A stretch of 64,000 nt of DNA from Eledone cirrhosa (lineage: Eukaryota): positions 96,658,001 through 96,722,000 of the forward strand of contig OZ024741.1 of the NCBI GenBank assembly GCA_964016885.1, in the 5' to 3' direction. The position numbers were made by a program, and so were the translations under genes. Under the pieces are notes generated by a model. It saw nothing but the letters and a program-made list of their open reading frames with translations, did not search any database and was not told the DNA's origin. Within the stretch, counting starts at the first letter, position 1, and each line of letters opens with the position of its first letter. This document shows, in pieces, positions 97 through 46,270 of the stretch.

Positions 97-264
97 GATA
101 GTGTATGGTAGAAACCAGCTAGACCATAACCCACCAGAGTATTCCATACTCGGAGTAGTAGAGTGGGTAATAGGAAAAGATTCAGGATCCGAACGAAAGC
201 CTTTAGTTCGGATCTAGCAGTCGAAACAACCGCAGCTCAGTTGTCGGGTTTCCTGAATCATTTC
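97..264. mobile_element. Family B fold-back mini-element (diverged copy) between (TA)n tracts
   Basis: Shares ccataacncaccagagta...gtagtagagtgggtaataggaaa with 4367, 15053, 19183, 44154; contains GAAA-CAAC-loop-GTTG-TC-GGG half-hammerhead. Confidence 0.75.
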
Positions 265-3291: not shown

Positions 3292-3765
3292 AAATGGAAA
3301 AGAATGAAACGAAATTTCATTTCTCACTTTTAGTACGATAGTTACTTAAAAGTAAGTATGTATGTATACGTACATGCATATATGTATAAATACGTACAGT
3401 AGTATGTATATATATACATACATGCACACATATATATATGTACGTATCGGCTCACCGAACATCTACCACAACGCTCGGTTTGTTTGTAAACATACAAACA
3501 GCCCGAATTATGCTGTACAGTGTTTAGGCAACCACGTCACCTTTTTATCCAACACTGACACAGGAACGATGTACTAGTTTCAAGCTTATTAGCTATCGTC
3601 AGCATCGCACACCCTCCTGCCAGATGGTTGAACGTTTGTTTACAAACAAACCGAGCGTTGTGGTAGATGATCGGTGAGACGATACGTACATATATATATA
3701 TATATGTGTGCATGTATGTATATATATACATACTACTGTACGTCTGTATACATATATGCATGTTT
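3292..3765 (-). mobile_element. Family A non-autonomous HHR element with partial inverted 5' arm
   Basis: Homologous to 23258-23720; 3372-3495 is inverted at 3633-3762; TA-flanked. Confidence 0.85.
3567..3607 (-). ncRNA. Minimal type-I hammerhead ribozyme
   Basis: Minus strand: CGATG-CTGACGA-T AGCT aata AGCT T-GAAA-CTAG-TA-CATCG; palindromic ACTAGT stem III, GUA cleavage triplet. Confidence 0.85.
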
Positions 3766-4366
3766 ATATATATTATATACCGCAGTTGTAAATAACCTAA
3801 ACCTAATTATTTGCTTATAGGTGCAGGAAAAAAAATTTCATTCACGTTTTTTTGTTAATTTAATTAAATACAACATTTGCAGATTGTGTATCTCTGATGT
3901 GCAGTACAAACATCTAAAGATATTTATTTTTCATTTTTTAATGCAGTAATAAAAAAATTGAGAGCTATTTTAAATAAACATCCGCTAAAACTAATGTGCG
4001 CATATTTTATCATTCATCTGTTTTGCATTGGATGGATAAAATGTGAAGCTGACGCTGATGATGTTTGAAATCAGAAGTTAGAGAAGTAAGAAATTACTTT
4101 CCTTTACAGTTCACGGAAATACATTGGTCAGTTGTTTTTTCGTTCATGTTATAATTAGTAAATAATTGTCGTCGTTAGAAGTTTTCTATGGCCCAACCAC
4201 TAGTTTATGATATTTCTCATCGAGGTTGTGACCTAGGATTGTCTAATTCGACAGGGGAAATGCCCCACAAAGTAGTTTTATAATTCAATATTTATTGGAG
4301 ACAGATATCAACATACCTTGACGCTGACGGGAGATTCCATAATATATATATATATATATATATATA

Positions 4367-4652
4367 GGAGGTGTGGTAAGGAACCAGGTGGTCCATAAGG
4401 CACCAGAGTACTCAATACTTCGGGTAGTAGAGTGGGTAATAGGAAAATGTTCAAGATCCCGACGGCAGAGCACAAGCCGTTTCCTCGGCTATTTCTAGAC
4501 GTCTATTTCTGAGTCCAGAAATAGCCGTTGAAACGGCTTGAACTCTGCCGTCGGGGTCTTGAACATTTTCCTATTACCCACTCTACTACTCAAAGTATTG
4601 AGTACTCAGGTGCGTTATGGTCCACCTGGTTCCTTACCACACTGCCTTCGTT
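4367..4652. mobile_element. Family B palindromic mini-element
   Basis: ~130-bp inverted arms; centre has ctatttctg-agtc-cagaaatag hairpin followed by GAAA-CGGC-loop-GCCG-TC; TA flanks. Confidence 0.9.
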
Positions 4653-4704
4653 ATAATATATATATTTTTATATATATAGACATAAGAAAGAGGGTGTTGT
4701 AAGC

Positions 4705-4831
4705 TACCGGGTGGACAATAACGCACCAGAGTACTCAATACTTAGGGTAGAAGTGTGGGTAGTAGGAAAAGATTCAGGACCCCGACGGCTGAGCTCCGGC
4801 GTTTGGGCTGCGTTCGGGGTCCTGAATATTT

Positions 4832-14876: not shown

Positions 14877-15309
<433 letters not shown>

Positions 15310-17390: not shown

Positions 17391-18043
17391 TATAAAAAAA
17401 TGTTCATACTATATATACCTACATACATATATATATATATATGTACATATATATATTGTTATACTTGGGGAGGGTCATATTTGTGTAATATTGCTAGAAT
17501 TAATAACAGAACACACTCACTGTTTGGTTGGTTTTCGCTTCTGTGTCTTTTATATCGGTTAATTTAATTTATTCGGTCCTCAATGTTGCCATTGACTGAC
17601 CAACAGTAAAAAATACAGATACAATATAGACACAAACACATATATATAGTCTATCAAACTTCTTTCGTTGCACATCTGCAACATCGTCGGTGTTGCTATT
17701 ATGTTTCCTCCCGTTGCATTGTATGCTTACGCCATCTTTATTTAGTCTGTTTATTTATTTATTTGTTTTTTACTGTCTTCTCTCCGCATGCGTTTGCGTA
17801 TAGTGTTTTGTCTGATGTGTGTTCTTGTTTGGGTGACTGTGTATTGGTTAATGTATTCTATCTTAGTTTACTAGTGTGTGTTTATATGTGTTTATTGTTA
17901 TTGTGCTTGTGTATGCATTTATCTATTTATTTATTTATCTATCTATCTATTTATACTTCTCTTAGGTCAGTGATGTCAGCAAAACCTACCCTTTTAAGAA
18001 AACCCACTGTACTAATAGGAAATGTATCATATGTAGAGTAAAC

Positions 18044-18411
18044 CCCCGGATAAACTGTAACACTAGAAACGTAGTCTATAGCATAAGATTACAGAGGGTA
18101 CTTGCAGAAACATGACAACAACATACATAGTCGAGACAGCTCGTAGCATAGGTGAAAGGAGAGACCAACACTGGGGGGAACTAAAAGGACGAAAAAACGG
18201 TTCAGTACTATATGAACATGCCAGACAACAACACAACGGTAACATAGACAACATAGAAGTTAGAATATTATCTAAACATAGAAATGACCCAGCAAATAGG
18301 CAAATCAGAGAGGCCAGCGAAATAGAACTTAGAAGGCCAACGCTAAACAGAAAAAATGAATGGAATAACAACAACACCCAAACAAACAACACTGACCTAA
18401 GAGAAGTATAA
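18044..18411 (+). pseudogene. PLE GIY-YIG endonuclease domain (frameshifted)
   Basis: INCNTRNVVYSIR / frameshift / TCRNMTTTYIVETARSIGER..H..RQIREA..I..P.LNRKNEW. Confidence 0.85.
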
Positions 18412-18657
18412 ATAGATAGATAAATAAATAGATAAATACATAGACAAGCACAATAACAACAAACACATATAAACAGACACTAGTAAACTAAGATAGAATA
18501 CATTAACCAATACACAGTCACCCAAACAAGAACACACAACAAACAAAATACTATACGTAAACGCTTGCGCAGAGAAGACAAAAAAAAACAAATAAATAAA
18601 TAAACAGACTAAATAAAGATGGCGTAACAATACAATGCAACGGGAGGAAACATAATA

Positions 18658-18703
18658 GCAACACTGACGATGTTGCAGATGTGCAACGAAAGAAGTTTGA
18701 TAG
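18658..18703 (+). ncRNA. Minimal hammerhead ribozyme candidate in pLTR (mutated mirror copy 17651-17696 on -)
   Basis: CTGACGA-T-GTTGCA gatg TGCAAC-GAAA-GAAG-TT-TGA; stems I and III imperfect; same position as the HHR of the related 35-40 kb element. Confidence 0.65.
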
Positions 18704-18934
18704 ACTATATATATGTGTTTGTGTCTATATTGTATCTGTATTTTTGACAGTTGGTCAGTCAATGGCAACATTGAGGACCGAATAAATTAAACTAACCGAT
18801 ATAAAAGACACAGAAGCGAAAACCAACCAAAGTGTGTTCTGTTATTAATTCTGGCAATTTAGACAAATATGACCTCCCCAAGTATAACAATATTTGTTTC
18901 GATACACGATTTCATATCAAAAACCTCGCAAAGC

Positions 18935-18969
<35 letters not shown>

Positions 18970-19173
18970 GTTATTCTGGGTTGAATCGGAGGTAACCACA
19001 GTAAGTAAAGCAATCAATACATAGCAGAATATAAAAGTTTTAATATATATGTGATTCTACAGGACTAGAACTGTTTCATTCTTTAGAAATCATCAGGCAG
19101 GAATCAGATTCCTGATGATTTCTAGAGAATGAAACAGTTCTAGTCCTGTAGAATCTCATCTATATTAAAACTT
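18970..19173. mobile_element. Palindromic HHR mini-element (palindrome 19035-19173)
   Basis: Arms ...ctacaggactagaactgtttcattctttagaaatcatcagg / cctgatgatttctagagaatgaaacagttctagtcctgtag... Confidence 0.85.
19106..19156 (+). ncRNA. Type-I hammerhead ribozyme
   Basis: AGATTC-CTGATGA-T TTC taga GAA T-GAAA-CAG ttctagtc CTG-TA-GAATCT; 6-bp stem I, GUA site. Confidence 0.85.
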
Positions 19174-19182
19174 ATATATATA

Positions 19183-19320
19183 TAACGAAGGAAGTGTGGT
19201 AAGGAACCAGATGGACCATAATACACCAGAGTACTCAATACTTAGGTTAGTAGAGTGGGTAATAGGAACGTGTTCAAGACCCCGAGTCCAGAAATAGCCG
19301 TCGAAACGGCTTGAGCTCTG
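19183..19320. mobile_element. Family B internally deleted copy
   Basis: aacgaaggaagtgtggtaaggaaccag...gacccc joined to gagtccagaaatagccgtcgaaacggc. Confidence 0.85.
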
Positions 19321-23406: not shown

Positions 23407-23770
23407 CAGGCACACATATATATATGCACGTATCAGTTTACCGAACATTTATTATAATGTTCGCTTTGTTCGTTTGTAAACAAACGAACAGCCTGATTTA
23501 CGCCGTACAGTGTTCAGGCAACCACGTCACCTTTTTGTTCAACACTGACACAGGAACGATGTACTAGTTTCAAGCTTGTTAGCTATCGTCAGCACCGTAT
23601 ACCTTTCTGCCAGATGGTTGAACGTTCGAAAGTATATACTTTCCTTATGAAAATTAACGGTTGAGCAGCCTAATTTGCATATCGAGTGAGTTCAGTCGGC
23701 CAGGCGCACCGAAAACGGTAAATGGAATAGAATGAAACGAAATTTCATTTCTCACTCTTAGTACGGCACT

Positions 23771-23816
<46 letters not shown>

Positions 23817-23943: not shown

Positions 23944-24145
23944 GTATAGGCTTATCCTTGAAGCATACACAAAAAAACTTAACTTAAAGCAATTAAACAA
24001 CTCTACAAAACAAAATATTTTAGTAACAGATGGGCAGAACGTAATATCTGCCTCCCAACCACTAAATGGGAGACGGGTATTACACAATCCACCTGTACTG
24101 CTATCACAACCTATCCATGGTATACCCGCTACCCACAACAAAGAA

Positions 24146-24571
24146 TGTAACTGCCATCTACCTGAAAGATGTCCATTGAAGAATGAATGCCTAAAGTCCA
24201 ACATTGTTTACCAATGCACGGTTGAATCGAACGACCAGAAATGGTATTATATCGGATCTACCACCACCTCGTTTAAATCTCGCTGGTACCGTCATCGATT
24301 CTCAATCAAACATCCTAATCACCGTTTTGTGACCACGCTCGCCAACAAGACCTGGCAACTCCGTGAACGCAACCAACAGTTCACCTTAAAATGGGATATA
24401 CTTTCCAGCGAAAGTGCATATCGGAGTGGATTGAAGTACTGCAGGTTATATAACCTTGAACTCTTTTACATATTAAAATCCAAAAACAAACTACTTAACG
24501 ATAGAATTGAACGATCATTATACTGCAACCACAAACTAAAAGCTAAATTCTCTCACTATAAAATAACTTAA
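24146..24571 (+). pseudogene. PLE GIY-YIG endonuclease with upstream CxC-x5-CPL Cys motif
   Basis: [24 protein letters not shown]...[21 protein letters not shown]...LKWDIL...CRL; homologous to 31330-31750. Confidence 0.88.
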
Positions 24572-25046
24572 CATTCGAACCCGTAACTATGACATCGCTT
24601 TCTAGCTAACCACCTTCTCTTCCTCCACACTACAAGACAATACACTGCTTATCACTATAAATGGTAACTCAGTGCAATTCGCAGATTACTACTATGAACC
24701 CAAAGTTCACTCACCACATAGACTTCGTCTGTCCCCTCTCTACCTCTCTCTCTACATCCATTACACTCTCTCTCGCTTTTGGCCTACCTCCCTCTCCACA
24801 TCTATGAACCTGCCCTCTGAGGCAATAAATAATTCCGACCTTAACTATCAACGCATCTCTCCAAAAGTAACCAGTATAATAAAAACATTTTGATTAAGAT
24901 ATCTACAAACCACTCTCTCCTATTTCTCCAACCCCTGCATATCTTTCTCTCTCTCTCCCTCTCCCCTACTTTTCTCTCTTCCTTTTCTACTCTATCTTCT
25001 CCAACAACCCCACTTAAGGGTATTTACATCGTACATTTTACCATTC

Positions 25047-28202: not shown

Positions 28203-29539
28203 AAAGTTCTATTTACATTGTTGGGATACAACAAGCAAATATTTTTATAACTGATATAAAGCACTCAACAAATAATTGTAGTAAAAATACGATATTAACA
28301 AAAGGAAACTATATTTATAAAACCATATTTATTTCATTATACATATTTCAAGGACACCAAGTTAAATTATGGTGTGCTTTATTCCGATAAAATATAATAT
28401 AGTGCAGTTTTATAAATAAATATTGACACACCCTTAAAGAATGCAACCATTACTGTTGTAAGCTCCCGGATAGAGGGGTTATAACTTTATTTATAGTAAT
28501 ATGTAAATTAGTATTGGATATTTTTAAATAAGCCGTTGGGTTACAGAGAAAGAGATGGAGAGAGAGAGAGAGATAAGAACAAGAGAGAGAAAATAGAGAG
28601 AGAAAGGTGACAGAGAAGAGAGAGCGAAAACTCTAAGTGATAGGTTGTTGAGTTATCTTAACATTTGAGATGAAGTGAAAGAATAAATAAATATTTATTT
28701 TTTATGGATGAATAGAGAAATGTAAATAATCGTGAATGGAAGATACATATATAATATGAGAATTTTAACCATTGTTTAAATATGATTAAATGTTTAGTTT
28801 ATCATTTAAATTATCGAGATCTATATATTAGGAAATCTATGTATTATTATTAAGACTATATATTATTTAAAAATCTCTATATTATTAGAAGAATATATTC
28901 ATATATATACACACGCAGGCGCAGATATACATACATATACACATATAAATACATATACATATATATCTACGTATATAATATATACATACAAAGTATAAAG
29001 GATTTTTTTAATTTAACATAGGAATTTTCATAAACTTATAGATTTTTCGTAGAAAATTTTATAAAATCAGAGAAATTCATTTCTATATAAGATCAAAGCA
29101 GCGTGAAGGAAGTTACGTTATTTATTTATATAAATGTTACAATTGTTAACATATTAAAGGATATTTTATGTTATACACACTTTATGTTATTATACAAATT
29201 TTGTTTATATATATAAGTTTTATATCTAATAAACCTACCTGTTATGTAGTTATGACTGTTATTATATAGGTTTAATTATCACGAACCTTAAGATAGTCCT
29301 TATAAACAAGTGCAATCGAATTGTATGCATATAGATATAGATATACACAATTCGCACATATATACACATAGACGTACCTACACATATGGTAGATATGCAT
29401 CACACATATACATATACACATACATACACACACATTAATATATGTACATGCATATAAATACATATATATATATATACACACATATATAGAGAGATAGTTA
29501 TATAAATACAGTACATAGTATAATTGAAGTACAAAAATA

Positions 29540-29800
29540 CATAATATAAAATAAAATATAATAAAATAAATTAAATAAAAATAGAATAAAATAAAATATA
29601 ATAAAATAATAAAATAATAAAATAATAAAATAATAAAATAAAATGAAATGAGATGAAAAGAAGTAAAATAAAATAAGTAAAATAAAATAAAATAAAATAA
29701 AATAAAATAAAATAAAATAAAATAAAATAAAATAAAATAAAATAAAATAAAATAAAATAAAATAAAATAAAATAAAATAAAAAATAAAAAGAATAAAAAA
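29540..29800. repeat. (AAAAT)n array within the PLE arm (counterpart 32150-32565)
   Basis: Direct reading. Confidence 0.95.
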
Positions 29801-29909
29801 GAATTATATTACGATTTGGAAATATAATTATAAGCAATATAATTTAAATCAATATTCTTTTAACAATATTATAGAATATTTCAAGTTATAATTTTAAAAT
29901 AATAATATG

Positions 29910-31750
29910 AAGGATCACAAAAGGAACTTTGAAACTGATTTACCAGTCAGATTAATTGCAACATCTAAATCGGACCTTGGCAGACTTAGCAAGAATATTT
30001 TGGACAGAATAATACCACAAATTAAGAATTTATCTTATTTAAAATTATGGAAAGTAATTAGTGAAGTTATCGATTGGTTTAAGGAAATTAAACATAACTA
30101 TAATAATAAGTTTATTCAGTTGGATATTGCTAACTATTACTCATCTATCACTCCTAATCTACTGAATAAAGCACTAACTTACGCATTTAAACATACAGAC
30201 TTAACTACCAATGACATTATATTTGGATTAGCAGTATCGGTAGAGGGTCGGACGCCATGCTTTCCAGCATAGTTACGTCCCTTTACGATCTGAGTTCAAA
30301 TCCCGCCGAGGTTGACTTTGCCTTTCATCCTTACGGTGTCGATAAAATAAAGTACCAGTAATGCACTGGGTAATTGCTGGCCTTGTGCCTAAAGTAGAAA
30401 CAATTATATTATCGGCACGGAAAACATTAATAGAATTTAAAAACCAACTCTGGACTAGGGCAGATAGAAATAATAACTTTGATATAACTATGGGATCATC
30501 CGATTCCGCTCAGGTAACGGATCTTGTGGGCCTCTTTATAAATAATTCTCTACATAGGAAAATACCTGAGATGACCGGAGCTTTATATCGTGACGACATG
30601 CTTTTACTTATTGAAAATAATAACTGTAAACTAAATAGGAAAAGAAAACAAATTATACAATTTTTTAATTACCTTAATCTAAAAGTAGAAATAGAGAATA
30701 ACCATAAAATATTTAACTTTCTAGATGTAACACTAAACCTTAACACATGTCTTCATTATCCATTTCACAAACTAAATGAGAATTTAAACTACGTCAATTT
30801 TAACTCTAATCACCCCAGATCTGTTAAAAATACTATAGTGAACTCTGTACAGCAACGCATTTCGAGAATTTCAGCTAATAAGAATATATTTGATGAAAAA
30901 GCACATTATTAGAACGAAGCGTTAGGTAGAGCTGGGTATAGAAATAAAATTAAATACATTGATAATAATAATATAACAACTAACCATAATCTTAAAAATT
31001 AACTATTTTAACTATTTTAACAATGTTAACAACCATAATAGAAAACCTTACAATAATTCCGAAAACAAAAAAAGAAATAGAACTAGGAATAAATTATGGT
31101 TCGCTCCTCCTTTCTCATTAAATATTAAAACCCCTATTGCTAAACTATTTTTTTAAAGCTCTTGACAAATGCTTCCCTAGAACACATAGATATTACTCAA
31201 TTTTTAATAGACATACTATAAAATTAACTCATTCTTCCACCAAAAATTTAGCGTAAAATATTAATAGAATTAATAGAAATTTAAAACCTAACCAAAATAC
31301 CACTAATAACCCAAGTAATATCCAATTTGATAAATGTAACTGTATAAATAAATCCAACTGTCCGTTAAATAACAATTGCTTAGCTAAAAATATAGTATAT
31401 AATTGTTAATATAAAAACTAATTTAAATTCATTTAATTATGTGGGATCCACTTCCACAGAGTTTAAATCCCGTTTCAATAATCATAAACATTCTTTTACG
31501 AATCCAAACAAACAATCTTCAACTTCTTTATCTAGCTTATTATGGGACCTCAAACAAAAGAACGTTGAATATTCGTTGCTTTGGAATATTAATTAAAATG
31601 CTTTAACTCCTCTTCTGAAAATTGTGATCTTTGTATAGAGGAAATATTCTTTATATTAAAGACTAAACATTCCCTGAACTTAAGGAACAATTTATTCAGT
31701 TGCTACAGACATAGATTGAACTCGACGTTTAAATATAAATTTAAAATTTA
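29910..31750 (+). pseudogene. PLE reverse transcriptase (YRDD type) plus C-terminal GIY-YIG; 5'-truncated, SINE-interrupted, stops and frameshifts
   Basis: KDHK..RLI, QLDIANYYSSI, FDITMGSSDSAQVTDLVG, LYRDD, FNFLDVTL, SNHP; CNC..CPLNNNCLAKNIVY, YVGSTSTEFKSRFNNHK, CDLC. Confidence 0.92.
30224..30410 (+). mobile_element. tRNA-derived SINE inserted in PLE RT
   Basis: attatatt duplicated at 30216-30223 and 30403-30410; removing 187 nt rejoins the RT frame. Confidence 0.92.
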
Positions 31751-34735
31751 ATATATAATTAATTAATTATTTCTATTAATATATTGAACCCATCGGTAAT
31801 TCATTAGATTCCTTCATTTTGACTGCTTAAACTCTCAAGTTAAAAAACTTTTCTTCCTAAATATAAATAAATATTAAAAACTCTTCTTGAGAAACATACT
31901 GAAAGCTCTTAAAAGGGGATAATATTATTTGTGATAGTTTCTCCTATTTTCGAAAGTTCCTCTTTTGAAAGTTTCTCATTCTTTCTCTTATGGATATAAA
32001 ATTAAGTTAAATATACGAAGAAAATGTTTATACTAAATTTATTAAACATATTATTATTTAAAAATTATAACTTGAAATATTCTTAATTTTTAAAAGTATA
32101 TTGATTTAAAGTTATATTGCTTATAATTATATTTCCAAATTGTAATATAATTCTTTTTTATTCTTTCTATTTTTTATTTCATTTTTTTATTTTATTTCAT
32201 TTTATTTTATTTTATTATATTTTATTTTATTTTATTTTATTTTATTTATTTTATTTTATTTTATTTTATTTTACTTATTTTATTTTACTTATTTTCATCT
32301 CATTTCATTTTATTATATTATTTTATTATATAAATACAGTACATAGTATAATTGAAGTAGATAAAATACATAATATAAAATAAAATAAAATAAAATAAAA
32401 TGAAATAAAATAAAATAAAATAAAATAAAATAAAATAAAATAAAATAAAATAAAATATAATAAATAGATATATAAATACAGTACATAGTATAATTGAAGT
32501 ACATAAAATACATAATATAAAATAAAATAAAATAAAATAAAATAAAATAAAATAAAATAAAATATATCTATCTCTCTCTATATGTGTGTATATATATATG
32601 TATTTATATGTATATACATATATTTATGTGTGTATATGTATGTGTATATGTATATGTGTGATGCATAGACCTATATGTGTAGGTATGTCTATGTGTATAT
32701 ATGTGCGAATTGTGTATATATATATGTATATGCATACAATTCGGTTGCACTTGTTTATAAGGACTATCTTAAGGTTCGTGATAAATAAACCTATATAATA
32801 ACAGTCATAACTACATAACAGGTAGTTTTATTAGATATAAAACTTATATATATAAACAAAATTTGTATAATAACATAAAGTGTGTATAACATAAAATTTC
32901 CTTTAATATCTTAACAATTGTAACATTTATATAACTAAATAACGTAACTTCCTTCACGCTGCTTTGATATTACATAGAAATGATTTTCTCTGATCTTATA
33001 AGATTTTCTACGAAAAATCTATAAGTTTATGAAAATTCCTATATTAAATTAAAAAATCCTTTATACTTTGTATGTATATATTATATACGTAGATATATAT
33101 GTATATGTATTTATACGTGTATATGTATGTATATCTGCGCCTGCGTGTGTATATATATGAATATATTCTTCTAATAATATAGAGATTTTTAAATAATATA
33201 TAGTCTTAATAATAATACATAGATTTCCTAATATATAGATCTCAATTTTTAATGTATAGATCTCAATAATTTAAATGATAAACTAAACATTTAATCATAT
33301 TTAAACAATGGTTAAAATTCTCATATTATATATGTATCTTCCATTCACGATTATTTACATTTCTCTATTCATCCATAAAAAATAAATATTTATTTATTCT
33401 TTCACTTCATCTCAAATGTTAAGTTAACTCAACAACCTATCACTTAGAGTTTTCGCTCTCTCTTCTCTGTCTCCTTTCTCTCTCTATTTTCTCTCTCTTG
33501 TTCTTATCTCTCTCCCTCCTTCTCTTTCTCCGTAACCCAACGGCTTATTTAAAAATATCCAATACTAATTTACATATTACTATAAATAAAGTTATAACCC
33601 CTCTATCTGGGCGCTTACAACAGTAATGGTTGCATTCTTTGAGGGTGTGTCAATATTTATTTATAAAACTGCTCTATATTATATTTTATCTGAATAAAGC
33701 ACACCATAATTTAACTTGGTGTCCTTGAAATATGTATAATGAAATAAATATGGTTTTATAAATATAGTTTCCATTTGTTAATATCGTTTATATATATATA
33801 TAAACCACTGGTAAATGAAATAATTATCTTATGTTATTTATTATATAACTAATAAGCTCTGCAACCTACATAGAGCACACTTCTTTCCTGGACCTTTCCG
33901 ACAGATTACTTCATTTACATATATATATATATATATATATTTAATTACTCTAGTAATATATGTGTGTTAATGTAGGCGTTCTTGTCATTGAAGACCACTA
34001 ATAAGCTTCAAGAACTGGATAACTATGGCCACAATTGCAACAAAAATAAGCGTATTAAAACCACAATACGGAAATGACTAGTAAAATCTCAATATAAAAT
34101 TAAATTGAAGGAAATAAATGAAATTGTACAATGTATTGTATACTTACAAGACTCTAGTAATGACGATATCTACAATGTTCAGAACATTGAATGATATTTA
34201 CAGTGTTACTAGGAGCTACGTTGAAAAGTACTAAGAGCTAGATAGATGGATATATGAATATGTAGGCAGAGAGGAGGAGAGGAAAGAGATGATATGATGA
34301 GATAACGGGGTAAAACGAGAGGAGGCGAAAGATAGACGTGAGATCGATATAAGATATATATATATGAGTTTGATATATGGGCAAATAAGTGGGAGAGAAA
34401 GAGCTGGAGTGACATATTCGCACACAAGTGAGTGAGATTCGCACACAAAGAAAGAGAAAGACTGACAAAATAAGAAAATGAAACAGTGTGGTATGCATTT
34501 TGAAGCTTTTCCATTTTGTAGCTTTTTCATAAATGCGCATTCTAATGATGTAGCTACATTTATTATAGAGTATTCATTTTATGTGACGAACAGTAAAAGA
34601 AGTGTTTTCAAATCAGATATAATTTGATTTTTACCTATAGATATAATATCCTGTTTTTTTTTTAGTCGACAATTGAATAATCGTTAGTACAAGACAGATA
34701 TTCAATTTATCAACCCGAAACGAGAAATAACCAAC

Positions 34736-35104: not shown

Positions 35105-35177
<73 letters not shown>

Positions 35178-35611
35178 ATACTTTGGGAGGGTCATGTTGC
35201 CAATAAGAAACACACGCACCAGTTGCTTTCACTTCAATTTATTATAATACATTTATAAATTTAGGAATTTATAAATTTCTGGTTGGTTGGTTGGTTCCAC
35301 AACCAGATAGTTGTTTATATATTGTCAAAGTTCTTTCGTCACACATTCTGAGACCTCTTCAATGACTGGGGATTCTTTTCTTTGTTTTTGTGCCTCTCCT
35401 TTGTTCGGTCCTACGCCATTTTGTTTCTGTGTGTGTGTTGTGTGCTCAGTCTGCGCATGCGCCACATCCGGGTGTCTGTGTCTGTTTATATTTGTTTATT
35501 TATTTGTTTATTTACATGTTACCGGTTGGTTGTTTGTTCTATGTGTATGTGTGTTTTCATTTTGTCCTTAATTGTAAGTTGTGATGTTGCTGTTCCACTC
35601 ATATTTTCTAT

Positions 35612-38600
35612 TTAATTTTGGTTGTAATTCTTTTATGTTTATTGCCTCTGTGATTTGTCTAAACATTGCGTCTTTTCTGTGTGTAGATTCTATTTTTATT
35701 TCTATGTTCTCTAATTTACCCTTATGTTCTATTTTAGCATGTTGGTAGAGTACAGATGATTCTTTACTATCTTGAAGGTCTCGTCAGTGTTCATTTATCC
35801 GTTCCCCTACACTACGAGCTGTTTCACCTATGTACACTATATTTTTGTCTCTACATTGTCCTTCAGTACATCTTATGCTATACACTACATTTCTAGTTTT
35901 ACAGTTAATATGGGGGCTTATATTACAGGTTATACATTTCTTATCAAATACAGGGGGGTCTTTGGAAAGGGTATGTCTTGCTAATAAGTGTTTTTACGGA
36001 GGTACCTGGTCTTTCTACTATCTAAATATTGAGTTTATCTTTATCTAGGACCCTTCTGAATTAGTAAGCTAATTCACCTCTAGGGGTTGTATCGATGAAC
36101 ATTACACTCTGGTATTTATTGCTATCATACCATGAGTTTATTCTATTAGCCTTATTCCTAGTTCTTTCTATTCTATTCCAAAATTTGCTCCTATACAAGG
36201 GGCAGGTCCCATTTGTGTCATTATTTACCATTTTTTCCCATTTGGTTCTGGCTCCTCTATACACTCTGATTCTATCTCTCTGATTGTAGCCAGAGAATTG
36301 CATACGGTGGATGAAGTGTTGTATGTGTCTCTCTAGTTCTTCGGGGTTGCACATGCGGGACACGTTTCTCATCACCCGTACCAAATCCGCAATCAGTATG
36401 TTGATTTTGGTGTGGTCCGAAACAGCCGAGTTTCGGTGGATCAGATGTTTGGAAGTCATGGGTTTGGCATAATGGGAATGGAGGATTTGTTTTTTGTTAT
36501 TAATGGTATCTAACCAGAGCTCTGTGTCTAGTACAGGTAATCGATGGTTGGGGTGTTTACTTGGGTAGTCTATAGTAAATATAATACTCTGGTGGATGGA
36601 GTTAGCTATTTGCTGGATGCTTTCCATTGTGTTTTTCTCTAGTTCCTGACTGTTCTCTAGTGGGGGTGTCTTAACTACGATGTTTATATCGTCAACGTAG
36701 CGGGAGTACATTATCAGGGTTAATGGGTCTTCTAATTGTTCTTTAAGTTTAAGTTTAAGTCTACTGTCCCACCATACCATGAATAAGTTAGCTATGTCGC
36801 CTGCAATGCTAACACCAATGGCTGCTCCTTCCTCTTGGGCATATGTTTTTCCATTAAATTTTAACATATGTTCCTTAAGGGTTAGTTTTATGCTAGCCCC
36901 TACCGCATGTGCAACCATTTTCTTCAGTTCATCGTGGTTTTCGGGTGTCCGTATGGCTCTGGGCCACCCGTTCCATCTATCTGTGTGGGTTTTCTTAGCC
37001 ATTGAGGTAATGGTAGGTGGTCTGACTCTTGCTGGTCTTGTAGTGCACAGGTTGCTAAGTTCATATGTGTCTAGGTAATTATTACTATAGGTAAGTTTAA
37101 GTAGGAGTCCCAGCTCACTGATATCAATCCCACGGAACTCAACATTGCTCTCACTGATCATTTATACGCATTTCTCCACAGCAAAATCCACGTCAATAGA
37201 TGGATACAGGGACACAACATCCATACTACCTATTATGCAGTTTGTTAGGTTCCTAGATCGGTTACCCTCGCCGATTCTGCTGAGGAGGTCATCCGTGCTG
37301 TCACATACATCTGGGGACATTTCAATGATGGGGCGTATGATCAGGGAGAGGAAGTAGGACAGTCTGTAGTTACTAGCAATGTTAGTCCCACAGACTGGCC
37401 GTGTTGGTGGTCCGGTGACAGGGTCACTGCCCGTTTTATGGTCTTTTCGAAGCCCATACAACGCCGGCACGTCATTGTTCCAGGCCTGGAAGTTGTTGGC
37501 AGTCCTTTTGTTGGGCTGCATTATATTCGTCCACATCACCATATGGGCATTGAGGGCTTTTTCTCTATCCTCATGCTCCTGTGGTGTTACCTCTCTTGTG
37601 TTAGTGATGTGGGGTTGCATTGCCTGGATTTAGTTTGGCAGGCTGTCAACCGACCATTCTGCCAGACTTGTCTGTTGGAAAGCATGCTATCTCTCCATTA
37701 CGTGAGCGCTGCATGAGCCTACGCAAGCCATTTGCAGATTTTTCTCCCAGTTGCTGGGCCTCCATTCTATTATGCTTCTTGCTATACTGTTCTATCATAT
37801 TTCTAAGTTCGGATTTAGCTATACTAAATTGTGCTTCTGTTTGTTCATTTACCTGCGACGGCAATTGCGTGCTTTTGTTAAATGGTAAAGTCGTGGCGTG
37901 GGCTCGTCGCAGGTCGAACGACTTATCGGAGGGATTATAAAAAGTAGAGTTCCAGGCTGCTGCTTTATGTATACTAGTGCTATTGTTATTGTTAGTTGTG
38001 TTGTCTCTATTTCTATTACTATTTCTATTTCCACCAACAGCCTCATTGTTGTTTCTATGTCTCTCATAATTACACCTGTCTCTTTCCACTGGCTCATTGT
38101 TATTATCTACTCTATTTTGTGTGTCTGTGTGTTCGTCTTGGTTATTTTCTTTGTCCATAGTCTCCCTTCTCCTTTTAATCCTATTACTTTCCCTTATTTC
38201 TGTGATTTCTGTGCTACTGTCATTACTTGTTTTCTGTGTCTGTGTGTTTGTTAAGATTGTGGTGGTGGTGAGAGGCATTGAATGTGTGTGTGTTGTTGTT
38301 GTTGATGTGTGCTGTTGTTGATGTGTGTTGTTGTTGTTGTCTCCGTGTGTGTTATTATTGTTGTGTGTGTTGTTATTCTTGTTTGTGTCTGCGTGTCTGT
38401 TGTTGTTGTTTCTGGGTATGTTATTACTGTTGGTGTGTGTGTTGTTGTTATTGTTGCTGTGTCTGTGTGTCTGTTGTTGTTGGGATGTGTGTTGTATAAG
38501 TGTATGCGTATATTGTTACTTTTGTTTTTGTTTTTGTTTTAGAGGCTCCAACGTAATTTTGTAAATAATTTTTCTATTTCTGACAGACAACTAATCATAT

Positions 38601-39272
38601 TTACCTTCTTGAATGTCGCAAATTTCGGTGGTAGAAGTAATGCAGATAATTCATCAGGGTCTATTACCGTGTCGCCGTATATATTTGTTTTGTTGTTGTT
38701 GTTGAACTCATCTGTTAATGAGGTGTCGGCCATATTTATACCGTCAATTTTGTCGGGATATCTATTGGTATTCTCTACAGTATCCTGATTTAGTTTTATC
38801 TGCTTAAGCCACTTTAGTTTCTTGTTAAAGTGCTTATCACATTCTTGAGCAATGTACTGTTCTTCAGGACGTATAAGGCTTATAAATATTAGTTTCTCTC
38901 TTGGTGTGGTGATCCTAGCTATTTCTTGTATTAGGTTACGCTTATGTTTTTCTTGATGACTTAATTCTCTATAGATTTTTTTATGTTTAGAATTAGTGTT
39001 CCTTTAAGCCTATCTGCTTCTTTTTTGGTGAGTTGTAATCTTCTTACGTCGGTGTTGATGGTGTTGGTGTAAACTCGGGACGAGGCACATTCTTTTATGA
39101 AGTGTTGTTGTCGAGATCTTATGGTTTTTTGTAGACAACAGAACATGGTGGTTTTCAGTATCTTGTTAGCCTGGCTAAGGCTTACGATATCTCGTTTCTG
39201 AATTTGTTTAGCAAGATTCTTTATCTGAAATCGTGTGTTGAAACCGATATTGTTATACTTTGGGAAGGTCAT
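35612..39272 (-). pseudogene. PLE polyprotein: N-terminal domain, low-complexity linker, RT (YVDD), thumb, GIY-YIG; several stops/frameshifts
   Basis: PTDKSGR, LYGLRKDHK..PTRPVC, GSMDVVSLYPSI, EGAAIGVSIAGDIANLFM, RYVDD, LPVLD; CKTRNVVYSIRC...VYIGETARSVGER at ~35790-35905; in-frame stop at 37162-37164. Confidence 0.92.
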
Positions 39273-39599
39273 GTTGCCAATAAGAAACACACGCACCAGT
39301 TGCTTTCACTTCAATTTATTATAATAAATTTATAAATTTAGGAATTTATAAATTTCTGGTTGGTTGGTTGGTTCCAAAATGAAAACACACACGCACACAT
39401 AGAAAATGAAAACACACACACACATAGAACAAACAAGCAACCGGTAACATGTAAATAAACAAATAAATAAACAAATATAAACACACACAGACACCCGGAT
39501 GTGGCGCATGCGCAGACTGACCACACAACACACACACAGAAACAAAATGGCGTAGGACAGAACAAAGGAGAGGCACAAAAACAAAGAAAAGAATCCCCA

Positions 39600-39642
39600 G
39601 TCACTGAAGAGGTCATAGAATGTGTGACGAAAGAACTTTGAC
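39600..39642 (+). ncRNA. Minimal hammerhead ribozyme in pLTR (C3U-mutated copy 35324-35366 on -)
   Basis: GTCA-CTGAAGA-G-GTCATA gaatg TGTGAC-GAAA-GAAC-TT-TGAC. Confidence 0.75.
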
Positions 39643-39850
39643 AATATATAAACAACTATCTGGTTGTGGAACAAACCAACCAACCAGAAATTTATATATT
39701 CCTAAATTTATAAATTTATTATAATAAATTGAAGTGAAAGCAACTGGTGCGTGTGTTTCTTATTGGCAACATGACCCTCCCAAAGTATAACAATATCGGT
39801 TTCAACAGACGATTTCAGATAAAGAATCTTGCTAAACAAATTCAGAAACG

Positions 39851-39887
<37 letters not shown>

Positions 39888-44153: not shown

Positions 44154-44158
<5 letters not shown>

Positions 44159-44378
44159 AAGGAATTGTGGTAAGGAACCAGATGGACCATAATGCACCAG
44201 AGTACTCAATATTTAGGGTAGTAGAGTGGAAAATAGGAAAGAGTTACACAGTTTGATACTGCCCAGTGGCGGCTAACCACTTTTTCATATGTATAGTAGT
44301 ATTTTACCTGATTTTTCTAAGCCATTATTTATAGTAATCGACTGTAATTACAGTTACTTTCTTCCTTTGAGATTTTTA

Positions 44379-44433
<55 letters not shown>

Positions 44434-44538
44434 AAAGGTATGACGCCGACGGCAGAGCTCAAGCCGTTTCGACGGCTATTTCTGGACCAAGAAATAGCCG
44501 TCGAAACGGCTTCAGCTCTGCCGTCGGGGGTCATACTT

Positions 44539-44608
<70 letters not shown>

Positions 44609-44748
44609 TAAAAATCCCAAAGGAAGAAAGTAACTGTAATTACAGTCGATTACTATAAATAATGGCTTAGAAAAATCAGGTAAAATACTACTATACATAT
44701 GAAAAAGTGGTTAGCCGCCACTGGGCAGTATCAAACTGTGTAACTCTT
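44154..44748. mobile_element. Family B composite insertion: tail 44154-44238, palindromic core 44431-44542, outer inverted repeat 44239-44430 / 44543-44748
   Basis: Arms read as near-perfect reverse complements, including the TA tracts. Confidence 0.9.
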
Positions 44749-46087: not shown

Positions 46088-46270
46088 GGCCCCGATGGCT
46101 GAGCATTTGTCGTTTCAACTGCCATTTTCGGTCTGGAATTAGCTGATGAAATGTCAAGATCTCAGTCGTCGGGGTGCCCACTCATTCATATCACCACACT
46201 CAACCACCCGAAGTATCGATTACTCTGGTTATTAACGATCTAACCAGTATTTTACTGTATCCATCTTGAT
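46088..46270. mobile_element. Old family B-related palindromic element (another remnant at ~41363-41400)
   Basis: gccccgatggctgagc..gtcgtttc / gaaatgtcaagatctcagtcgtcgggg. Confidence 0.6.

Follow-up and report, generated by a model that had tools for sequence, protein, structure and literature searches.

Positions 4,367 to 4,652 of the 64,000-nucleotide window (the whole stretch of DNA analysed) hold a short palindrome with part of a hammerhead ribozyme on its arms, and the question raised by this locus is how such a structure comes about. The first-pass annotation grouped it with similar copies as family B, assigned the group to the inverted ends of Penelope-like elements (PLEs) and proposed that a cDNA had folded back on hammerhead stem II. 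The palindrome itself is real, with imperfect arms that are 88% alike and a (TA)n run on either side, and short stubs like it, derived from an intact Penelope-type element, number in the tens of thousands. Both arms carry GAAA-CGGC-9 nt loop-GCCG-TC-GGG, with GAAA placed by motif scan at 4530 on the plus strand and at 4483 on the minus strand; the 5′ half is missing from both arms, which leaves the palindrome without a complete hammerhead core. In the numbering used throughout, the G of the hammerhead GAAA is 0 and negative positions lie upstream. Arms with an outer end at about +120 are called tailed and those with an outer end at about +42 tail-less. The parts of the locus are as follows.

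4340..4366, unstranded: (TA)n target, left side, from the sequence.
4367..4500, minus strand: left arm, tailed, about +115 to -17, GAAA at 4483-4480 on the minus strand; from blastn against the natural long copy L101 and the motif scan.
4501..4511, unstranded: 11-nt junction insert, a near copy of neighbouring arm sequence; from the sequence and the junction parsing of L001.
4512..4652, plus strand: right arm, tailed, from -18 (A of AGTCC in loop II) to about +120; 88% to the intact element L226.
4519..4557, plus strand: predicted hammerhead 3′ half, from the motif scan, with its partners present in long copies; stem II 3′ strand 4519-4529, GAAA 4530-4533, stem III 4533-4551 with a 9-nt loop, C17 at 4552, stem I 3′ strand GGGGT 4553-4557.
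4573..4652, plus strand: the 'tail', about 80 nt, lying between the two fixed ends; full-length copies have it as the beginning of the following unit's 5′ leader.
4653..4679, unstranded: (TA)n target, right side, from the sequence.

Judged by its letters, the insert at 4501..4511 is a short snap-back or templated fill-in and not native stem II. With its two tails, the 4367 copy is a minority form. The other family B copies of the window differ from it and from one another in centre and arm length, as had been noticed in the first reading.

97..262, unstranded: old-subfamily copy in which a tail-less arm reaching -21 faces a decayed tailed arm head-to-head; GAAA at 223.
4693..4830, unstranded: second, older copy beside 4367, with the tailed arm on the minus strand and a rearranged centre.
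15053..15241, unstranded: typical one-tailed palindrome; 139/139 nt identical to the end of the intact element L226.
19184..19320, unstranded: tailed arm stopping at about +23, joined to a partner starting at -18; non-overlapping twin-primed form.
44155..44240, minus strand: tail-side fragment, +35 to +120, interrupted by another insertion.
44431..44546, unstranded: palindrome with two tail-less arms, a rare form.
46088..46270, unstranded: heavily decayed old copy with incomplete stem III pairing on either arm.

The 44431 palindrome is flanked by a 193-nt, 99% inverted repeat of unrelated DNA (44239-44748), as if the flank had been co-copied.

The motif GAAA-stem III-TC-GGG is also found at 223 (copy 97), 15173/15199 and 44470/44503. 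A hammerhead 3′ half with a GUC site had been attributed to six copies; it is present at 97, 4367, 15053 and 44431, and the copy at 19183 stops before GUC. In copy 46088 the CGAC lies on the minus arm and the GTCG on the plus arm, so the two do not make a stem III pair, and 2 and 3 of 4 pairs are formed on its arms. The covarying stem III once read from these copies dissolves with this: the 46088 pairs are not real, and CAAC/GTTG occurs in copy 97 only and in 0/356 arms from fetched loci. Among those 356 arms CGGC/GCCG (229) and CGGC/GCTG (45) dominate, and stem III displays no real covariation. Rfam, with 127 rows at E≤1 over the window, yields no hammerhead match. The window has 14 CTGANGA..GAAA matches, all of them outside the family B copies, in agreement with the earlier statement that no copy has CUGANGA.

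Other PLE-type sequences and repeats share the window with family B. At 19050-19150, adjoining copy 19183, a palindrome of another family carries a complete CUGAUGA hammerhead on both arms with the axis 5′ of the core. A 429-nt inverted repeat at 17518-18836 has a GIY-YIG-like fragment between its arms and a CTGACGA hammerhead-like motif. Inverted PLE-type ends with the hammerhead-like motif CTGAAGAG are found at 39187-39856 and 35170-39796, and the same family is joined to family B arms in loci L034 and L042. A further repeat with a CTGACGA..GAAA motif has two copies, one at 3440-3700 that has inverted ends and one at 23420-23800. Other Hydra-like PLEs have left broken ORF fragments, 36-49% identical to the family B protein, at 29907-31590 and 24140-24583, the former within a large inverted repeat (28282-33794). 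Outside the window, locus L068 (G000:C2:218084615-218084714) has a family B arm that ends at -18 and continues, without a change of orientation, into the hammerhead of another family at its cleavage site; the two share an AGTCC at the join, an arrangement that suggests a template jump between two RNAs.

Family B is very large. Across the 3.0 Gb of genome searched, a 27-nt arm pattern has 40,175 exact matches against 0 for its reversed control, far beyond chance. Sixty fixed-interval 10-kb stretches of the four largest contigs contain 30 arms, which corresponds to about 150,000 genome-wide if they are representative. A position-ordered sample was composed of the window, the sixty stretches and the first 100 pattern matches on contig 1 with their flanks. 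Inner ends were taken from 163 arms that differ from the anchor by no more than 3 mismatches, a threshold that makes this sample lean to young copies; arms near locus edges were dropped.

The longer, non-palindromic parents that had been predicted do exist. A search with the sequence upstream of one long arm gives 296 genome matches, and among the 30 fetched most continue into a pyrimidine-rich UTR and some into a frame for reverse transcriptase (RT) plus GIY-YIG endonuclease. A protein search of the genome returns many long open frames, and in ten fetched regions there are frames of 764-795 codons together with pseudo-LTRs, inverted partners and a tandem of ~3.54 kb units. The parent is an intact Penelope-like element of ~3.55 kb with a 717-aa RT-endonuclease (counted from the first ATG), which confirms that family B represents PLE ends. 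Its single ORF encodes RT and GIY-YIG endonuclease, with a YRDD motif and endonuclease motifs recognised by eye. The protein has 673 homologs at E≤1e-20; Pfam gives 0 matches on the intact parent protein and RVT_1 on 1/4 homologs. Pseudo-LTRs from partial tandems, an inverted 5′-truncated partner and a one-sided tail are all present. At G000:C1:91468001-91488000 (L223, L224) there is a head-to-tail tandem of at least 4 intact units, each with a complete predicted hammerhead.

By its motifs (RWR 104, DKT 184, CNCPDRSIC 639, CNLC 737, CKH 765) the parent belongs to the Hydra clade, which PMC8557442 defines by an RWK-like motif, DKT, CxCX5C, CxxC plus CxH, a C-terminal endonuclease and a (TA)n target. 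A Neptune/Nematis-like identity was dropped in favour of Hydra after this motif comparison. As in Hydra-1_Obim and Hydra-2_Amil, RWR replaces RWK, DKT and the CxCX5C linker are present, and CxxC plus CxH surround a conserved E and N (PMC8557442); by eye, the protein follows the Hydra alignment in the supplement of that paper. Hydra elements are also described there as having (TA)n targets, a hammerhead near the 3′ end, an inverted 5′-truncated partner and a one-sided tail, all as in family B. The family B unit is longer (~3.55 kb against generally <3 kb for Hydra elements in PMC8557442), as is its tail (~80 nt against 30-40).

The long copies establish that the arm is a hammerhead 3′ half, with partners for both stem I and stem II. 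The order along them is ACCCC, TTGANAA, G, stem II, a 31-33 nt loop, C, GAAA, a 5-bp stem III, TC and GGGGT, and loop II contains an inner CTAA/TTAG hairpin. The predicted structure is a type I hammerhead with a U3-A8 core and the helix order stem I-core-stem II-GAAA-stem III-NUH-stem I. The parent sequence forecast by the first-pass annotation was nearly right in ACCCC, the stem I partner, and in CGGCTATTT, the stem II partner, and wrong in the core, which is UUGANAA; this U3-A8 swap is why CUGANGA is absent. In 71 long copies, chosen by a pattern allowing 2 changes, the core is TTGA-N-AAG with position 7 being A in 33, G in 8, T in 6 and C in 4; the remainder comprise U3-G8 in 3 and scattered single variants in 17, and C3-G8 occurs in 0. 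Longer copies lacking CUGANGA and a stem I partner had been named as a refutation, a test that, taken literally, would have misled since none of the 71 has C3-G8. Searches for parents with CUGANGA produced 42 and 35 pattern matches, and the 30 listed of the 42 are chance junctions or joins with other PLE families.

Folding agrees with this model in part. The minimum-energy folds of L091 and L149 are three-way junctions (z -2.41 and -0.58), and that of L206, a decayed old copy, is not. Helix cells are paired at 91% on 21 long copies versus 26-42% for slid controls. Three stem II pairs are changed on both sides between the young and old subfamilies, which amounts to a single lineage split; four intermediate copies break two of the three pairs, and the old-family rows were selected by their 5′ strand. 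On 16 mostly young long copies covariation is no greater than in shuffles. L318, L320 and L329 combine an old stem II 5′ strand with a young 3′ strand and a U3-G8 core, and by these features they are an intermediate or chimeric subfamily. The 9-nt stem III loop consists of 2 nt, GAGCTC and 1 nt; the palindrome is conserved and the flanking loop positions vary between subfamilies. The HIV-1 dimerization loop has this layout. The U3-A8 swap has been published for Schistosoma PLEs (PMC4209133), and natural U3-A8 hammerheads are described as active in vitro (PMC3088659).

How two such arms come to face each other is best read from the way they pair. Outer ends are fixed at two TAT sites adjoining (TA)n, at about +42 and about +120, and the stretch between them is the PLE tail, which in full-length copies is the 5′ leader. 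The 56 short palindromes comprise 52 with one tailed and one tail-less arm, 1 with two tail-less arms, 0 with two tails and 3 unclear (52/53 of those classified). The same mixed pairing is found in 13/13 classified long inverted pairs (16 found) and in 6/6 full-length insertions with an inverted partner, where the main copy may be of either type. Both arms belong to the same subfamily in 47/52 palindromes (shuffles: mean 10, maximum 20). Shared variants between arms number 19 against a shuffled mean of 5; they fit one template, and also one source locus or fold-back. The stem III variant was discarded as a marker of one versus two RNAs: arms are discordant in 16/16 with a partner among 30 loci, and the variant is scattered over subfamilies and thus uninformative on RNA number.

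The two arm types behave differently. In seventeen cases a tail-less arm lies opposite a tailed arm that ends short of GAAA, or in 16 after removal of L203, which has an internal deletion; the reverse is found in 0. Five of the 17 early-stopping tailed arms hold the tail alone, and 3 end at +36 to +39, at the starting point of the other primer. Tailed arms without a partner number only 4, three of them shown to lack any very short tail-less partner, which could escape detection. The tailed arm reaches further in 23 of 51 palindromes and the tail-less arm in 19, with 9 ties, so the idea that the tailed arm always reaches further is ruled out. The commonest centre is 30 nt (3,295 insertions); 20 of these were parsed, and the tail-less arm owns the extra bases in 9/15 informative cases. 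Centres of 30-32 nt make up 20/56 short palindromes, and many centres carry short templated inserts.

The stubs are probably head-to-head 3′-end insertions of two cDNAs that were primed on the same RNA at a cut (TA)n repeat and then end-joined. The element's enzyme would cut both strands of the repeat, and each cut end would be extended on one RNA from one of two fixed start sites, +42 and +120. The +42 primer would copy first, and the +120 primer would copy the tail and then have to displace the first cDNA, at which it would sometimes fail. Both cDNAs would stop near -18, and their ends, ..TGGACT-3′, may pair imperfectly or gain short templated inserts before joining. At centres of 30-32 nt, two ..TGGACT ends would be in register for imperfect pairing, a reading drawn from the letters rather than from a computed energy. 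One-tailed pairing together with the early failure of the tailed arm alone makes two primers on one RNA the simplest reading. In vitro, both strands are cut and extended by a PLE protein, which begins copying at two internal sites of the RNA, one on each side of the tail, and is predicted to be a dimer (PMC11167929). That paper finds no difference in start site between the strands, a point against strict use of one site of each kind. Double junctions can also be written as repeated refolding of a single strand, and some asymmetric centres could instead reflect central deletions that followed insertion (in L196, L203 and L261 the break is at a repeated motif).

Refolding of one strand is the basis of an improbable alternative, in which a cDNA halted near -18 turns back through a 3-6 nt loop and serves as its own template, the second end arises by an endonuclease cut or a jump to +42, and mirror centres follow later by flip or deletion of the spacer. 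Identical arms with one tail are explained by such fold-back, the short templated centre inserts show that cDNA ends can snap back, and self-priming has been proposed for PLE palindromic junctions (PMC3846280). However, a single fold-back strand needs the tailed arm as its template, which is contradicted by the 19/51 longer tail-less arms unless extra steps are added. It cannot account for the 16 insertions in which each arm holds sequence missing from the other, nor for joins between two families, such as L048 and L053, which came from a targeted search and have a family B arm head-to-head with another PLE family, and it gives no reason why 6/6 full-length copies pair tail-less with tailed ends. 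Snap-back would survive on a smaller scale: inserts of a few to ~15 nt at some centres, including 4367, are where it would act, as junction repair after twin priming.

A similarly low probability attaches to two cDNAs made from two RNAs, one for each enzyme subunit, that would be linked as a kissing dimer through the GAGCUC loop of stem III. In the 356 arms, scanned with 2 changes allowed in the hexamer, conservation is 95-99% at the six positions of the loop palindrome and the flanks are variable; metazoan PLEs typically have a palindromic loop III and dimeric hammerheads (PMC4209133). That two RNAs can take part in one event is shown by the two-tailed copies and the cross-family joins. Ten two-tailed copies are known, all from a search seeded with 4367, and their subfamilies match in just 3; on that account copies of this kind, 4367 for example, are likely two-RNA events or later recombinants. 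Equivalent RNAs should, however, often give tailed-tailed and short-short pairs, at odds with the 52/53 mixed palindromes, and a dimer offers no reason for the early failure of the tailed arm alone (16:0).

The inner ends bear on the fold-back that the first-pass annotation had placed at stem II. The 163 arms end at 0 to -11 in 24 cases, -12 to -20 in 93, -21 to -43 in 29 and beyond in 17, and ~90% end within the predicted ribozyme. For the further-reaching arm of each palindrome (n=51) the end is at -17 in 14, -18 in 11, -19 in 5 and -20 in 0. An end 17-18 nt before GAAA lies 6-7 nt into loop II, ahead of the stem II 5′ strand, and by eye the old-subfamily copies L037, L087 and L133 share this end point. 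An independent measure, contig depth in DNA run X1, which is not a copy number and possibly comes from the same sample, rises 13-fold at the bin starting at -20 and drops nearly 300-fold within two bins past +120. Twenty-six copies continue into the ORF; 15 of these span at least 1.4 kb, 14 of the 15 reached GAAA, and 13/14 passed the whole ribozyme, versus 17/163 terminal arms (Fisher p 9e-11), ORF-long copies being selected for processivity. The -18 stop is not an intrinsic block, since those 13 cDNAs went through.

A cDNA that reached native stem II, folded back on it and self-primed the inverted arm would leave a left flank of GTTTCGA-CGGCTATTT with loop II intact. Inner ends do cluster beside stem II, and the parent has the predicted stem II partner. 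A pattern that admits both snap-back and parental flanks has 298 matches, and among the matches listed 100/100 are parental and 0 snap-back. Arms end before the 5′ strand would have been copied, nearly all the ORF-long cDNAs passed the structure on which the fold-back depends, and in the neighbouring PLE family at 19050-19150 the core is intact with the axis 5′ of it. The central hairpin is merely the palindrome centre, with no evidence of stem II in it, and the true stem II covariation is in the long copies; snap-back at this helix is accordingly a very remote prospect. As for a miniature inverted-repeat DNA transposon inserting at TA, with the hammerhead likeness due to chance, short, high-copy, palindromic, TA-flanked copies with fixed outer ends might recall one, but its probability is negligible given the direct continuity with an RT-endonuclease ORF, the full identity of copy 15053 to an intact PLE end over 139 nt, and two end types per copy with variable centres in place of the fixed terminal repeats of a DNA transposase family that the annotation had named as a refutation.

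Why twin-primed cDNAs would stop near -18 is the least certain part of the account. The favoured cause, tentative and somewhat short of an even chance, is an RNA 5′ end at -18 set by a putative promoter inside loop II. The A at -18 stands within TTAGTC or TCAGTC, which resembles the invertebrate initiator, and TATTTA lies 29 nt upstream in young subfamilies. The length of loop II is kept across subfamilies, and 3/11 copies starting or rearranged inside the ORF end at -15 to -18, one of them after ~950 nt. PLE pseudo-LTRs contain promoters (PMC2377424, PMC3846280); a plant retrozyme promoter was rejected as a precedent, its start being upstream of the ribozyme (PMC12029980). No excess of a cap-derived G at -19 appears at single-arm (TA)n junctions (T 80, C 10, G 9, A 1 in the first 100 of 567), and in palindromes G at -19 occurs in 10/39 and is mostly accounted for by the other arm. 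The TATA-like string is absent from the old subfamily, and TTAG is equally explained by pairing with CTAA in the conserved loop II hairpin. Stalling of the initiating complex at this small hairpin is the other candidate, plausible and rated below the promoter. ORF-long cDNAs end at -15 to -19 in 0/15, which fits the promoter model only if self-cleavage removes the downstream priming sites.

A more specific and rather unlikely version would place the putative promoter in the element's own ribozyme. The mRNA would start with the hammerhead 3′ half and lose its downstream priming sites by self-cleavage, and twin priming near the 5′ end would turn ~90% of insertions into dead stubs. Loop II would then be held at 31-33 nt as it spans a TATA-like box (-47) and the initiator (-18). 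Full-length transposition would need read-through or a circular RNA, the circle possibly closed by a hammerhead assembled from both RNA ends.

Family B shares features with several described systems. The Hydra elements of PMC8557442 carry canonical hammerheads, whereas family B has the U3-A8 core and a loop II of 31-33 nt. The hammerheads of the Schistosoma Cercyon PLEs (PMC4209133) resemble those of family B in being type I with U3-A8, a long stem II, a palindromic loop III and motif pairs on opposite strands. Unlike them, family B has a 5-bp stem III with a 9-nt loop, and should for that reason fold as a monomer, as well as a second small hairpin in loop II; in addition, ~90% of its copies keep the 3′ half alone. 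The Poseidon element PAc of the green anole resembles the model in vitro: its protein cuts and extends both strands, copying begins at two internal sites on either side of the tail, the target is AT-rich and the RNA template is uncleaved (PMC11167929). The available text of that work gives no account of inverted ends and no strand preference for the start sites, whereas family B uses one site per side. Animal non-LTR retrozymes (bioRxiv 10.64898/2026.07.22.740005) are likewise non-coding, hammerhead-bearing copies moved by PLE proteins. The family B stubs, in contrast, are truncated ends of a coding element and not tandem units with a full ribozyme: they lack the 5′ half, no tandem non-coding hammerhead units are found, and the sole tandem seen is of the coding unit. 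In LINE-1 twin priming, two primers from one target break copy one RNA, giving an inversion with a repaired junction, and the cDNAs are not known to overlap. In family B the cDNAs mostly overlap fully, producing an inverted duplication, and both start sites are fixed.

The Hydra clade, the U3-A8 core, the inverted partners, the tail and two-strand priming in vitro are already in print. Family B adds three things: an autonomous element on which fold-back could be tested, the 16:0 asymmetry, and inner ends that stop within loop II; a search of openly accessible papers found no prior account of them. As family B shows, searches built on CUGANGA miss abundant PLE hammerheads. PMC8557442 describes the origin of PLE inverted ends and of the one-sided tail as undefined, and what follows priming is called unvalidated in PMC11167929. 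From tens of thousands of young insertions and the intact coding copies comes a rule, tailed with tail-less and the tailed arm alone failing early, and this pairing rule links two-site priming in vitro to genomic structure. The origin of PLE inverted ends thereby becomes testable, with a natural protein.
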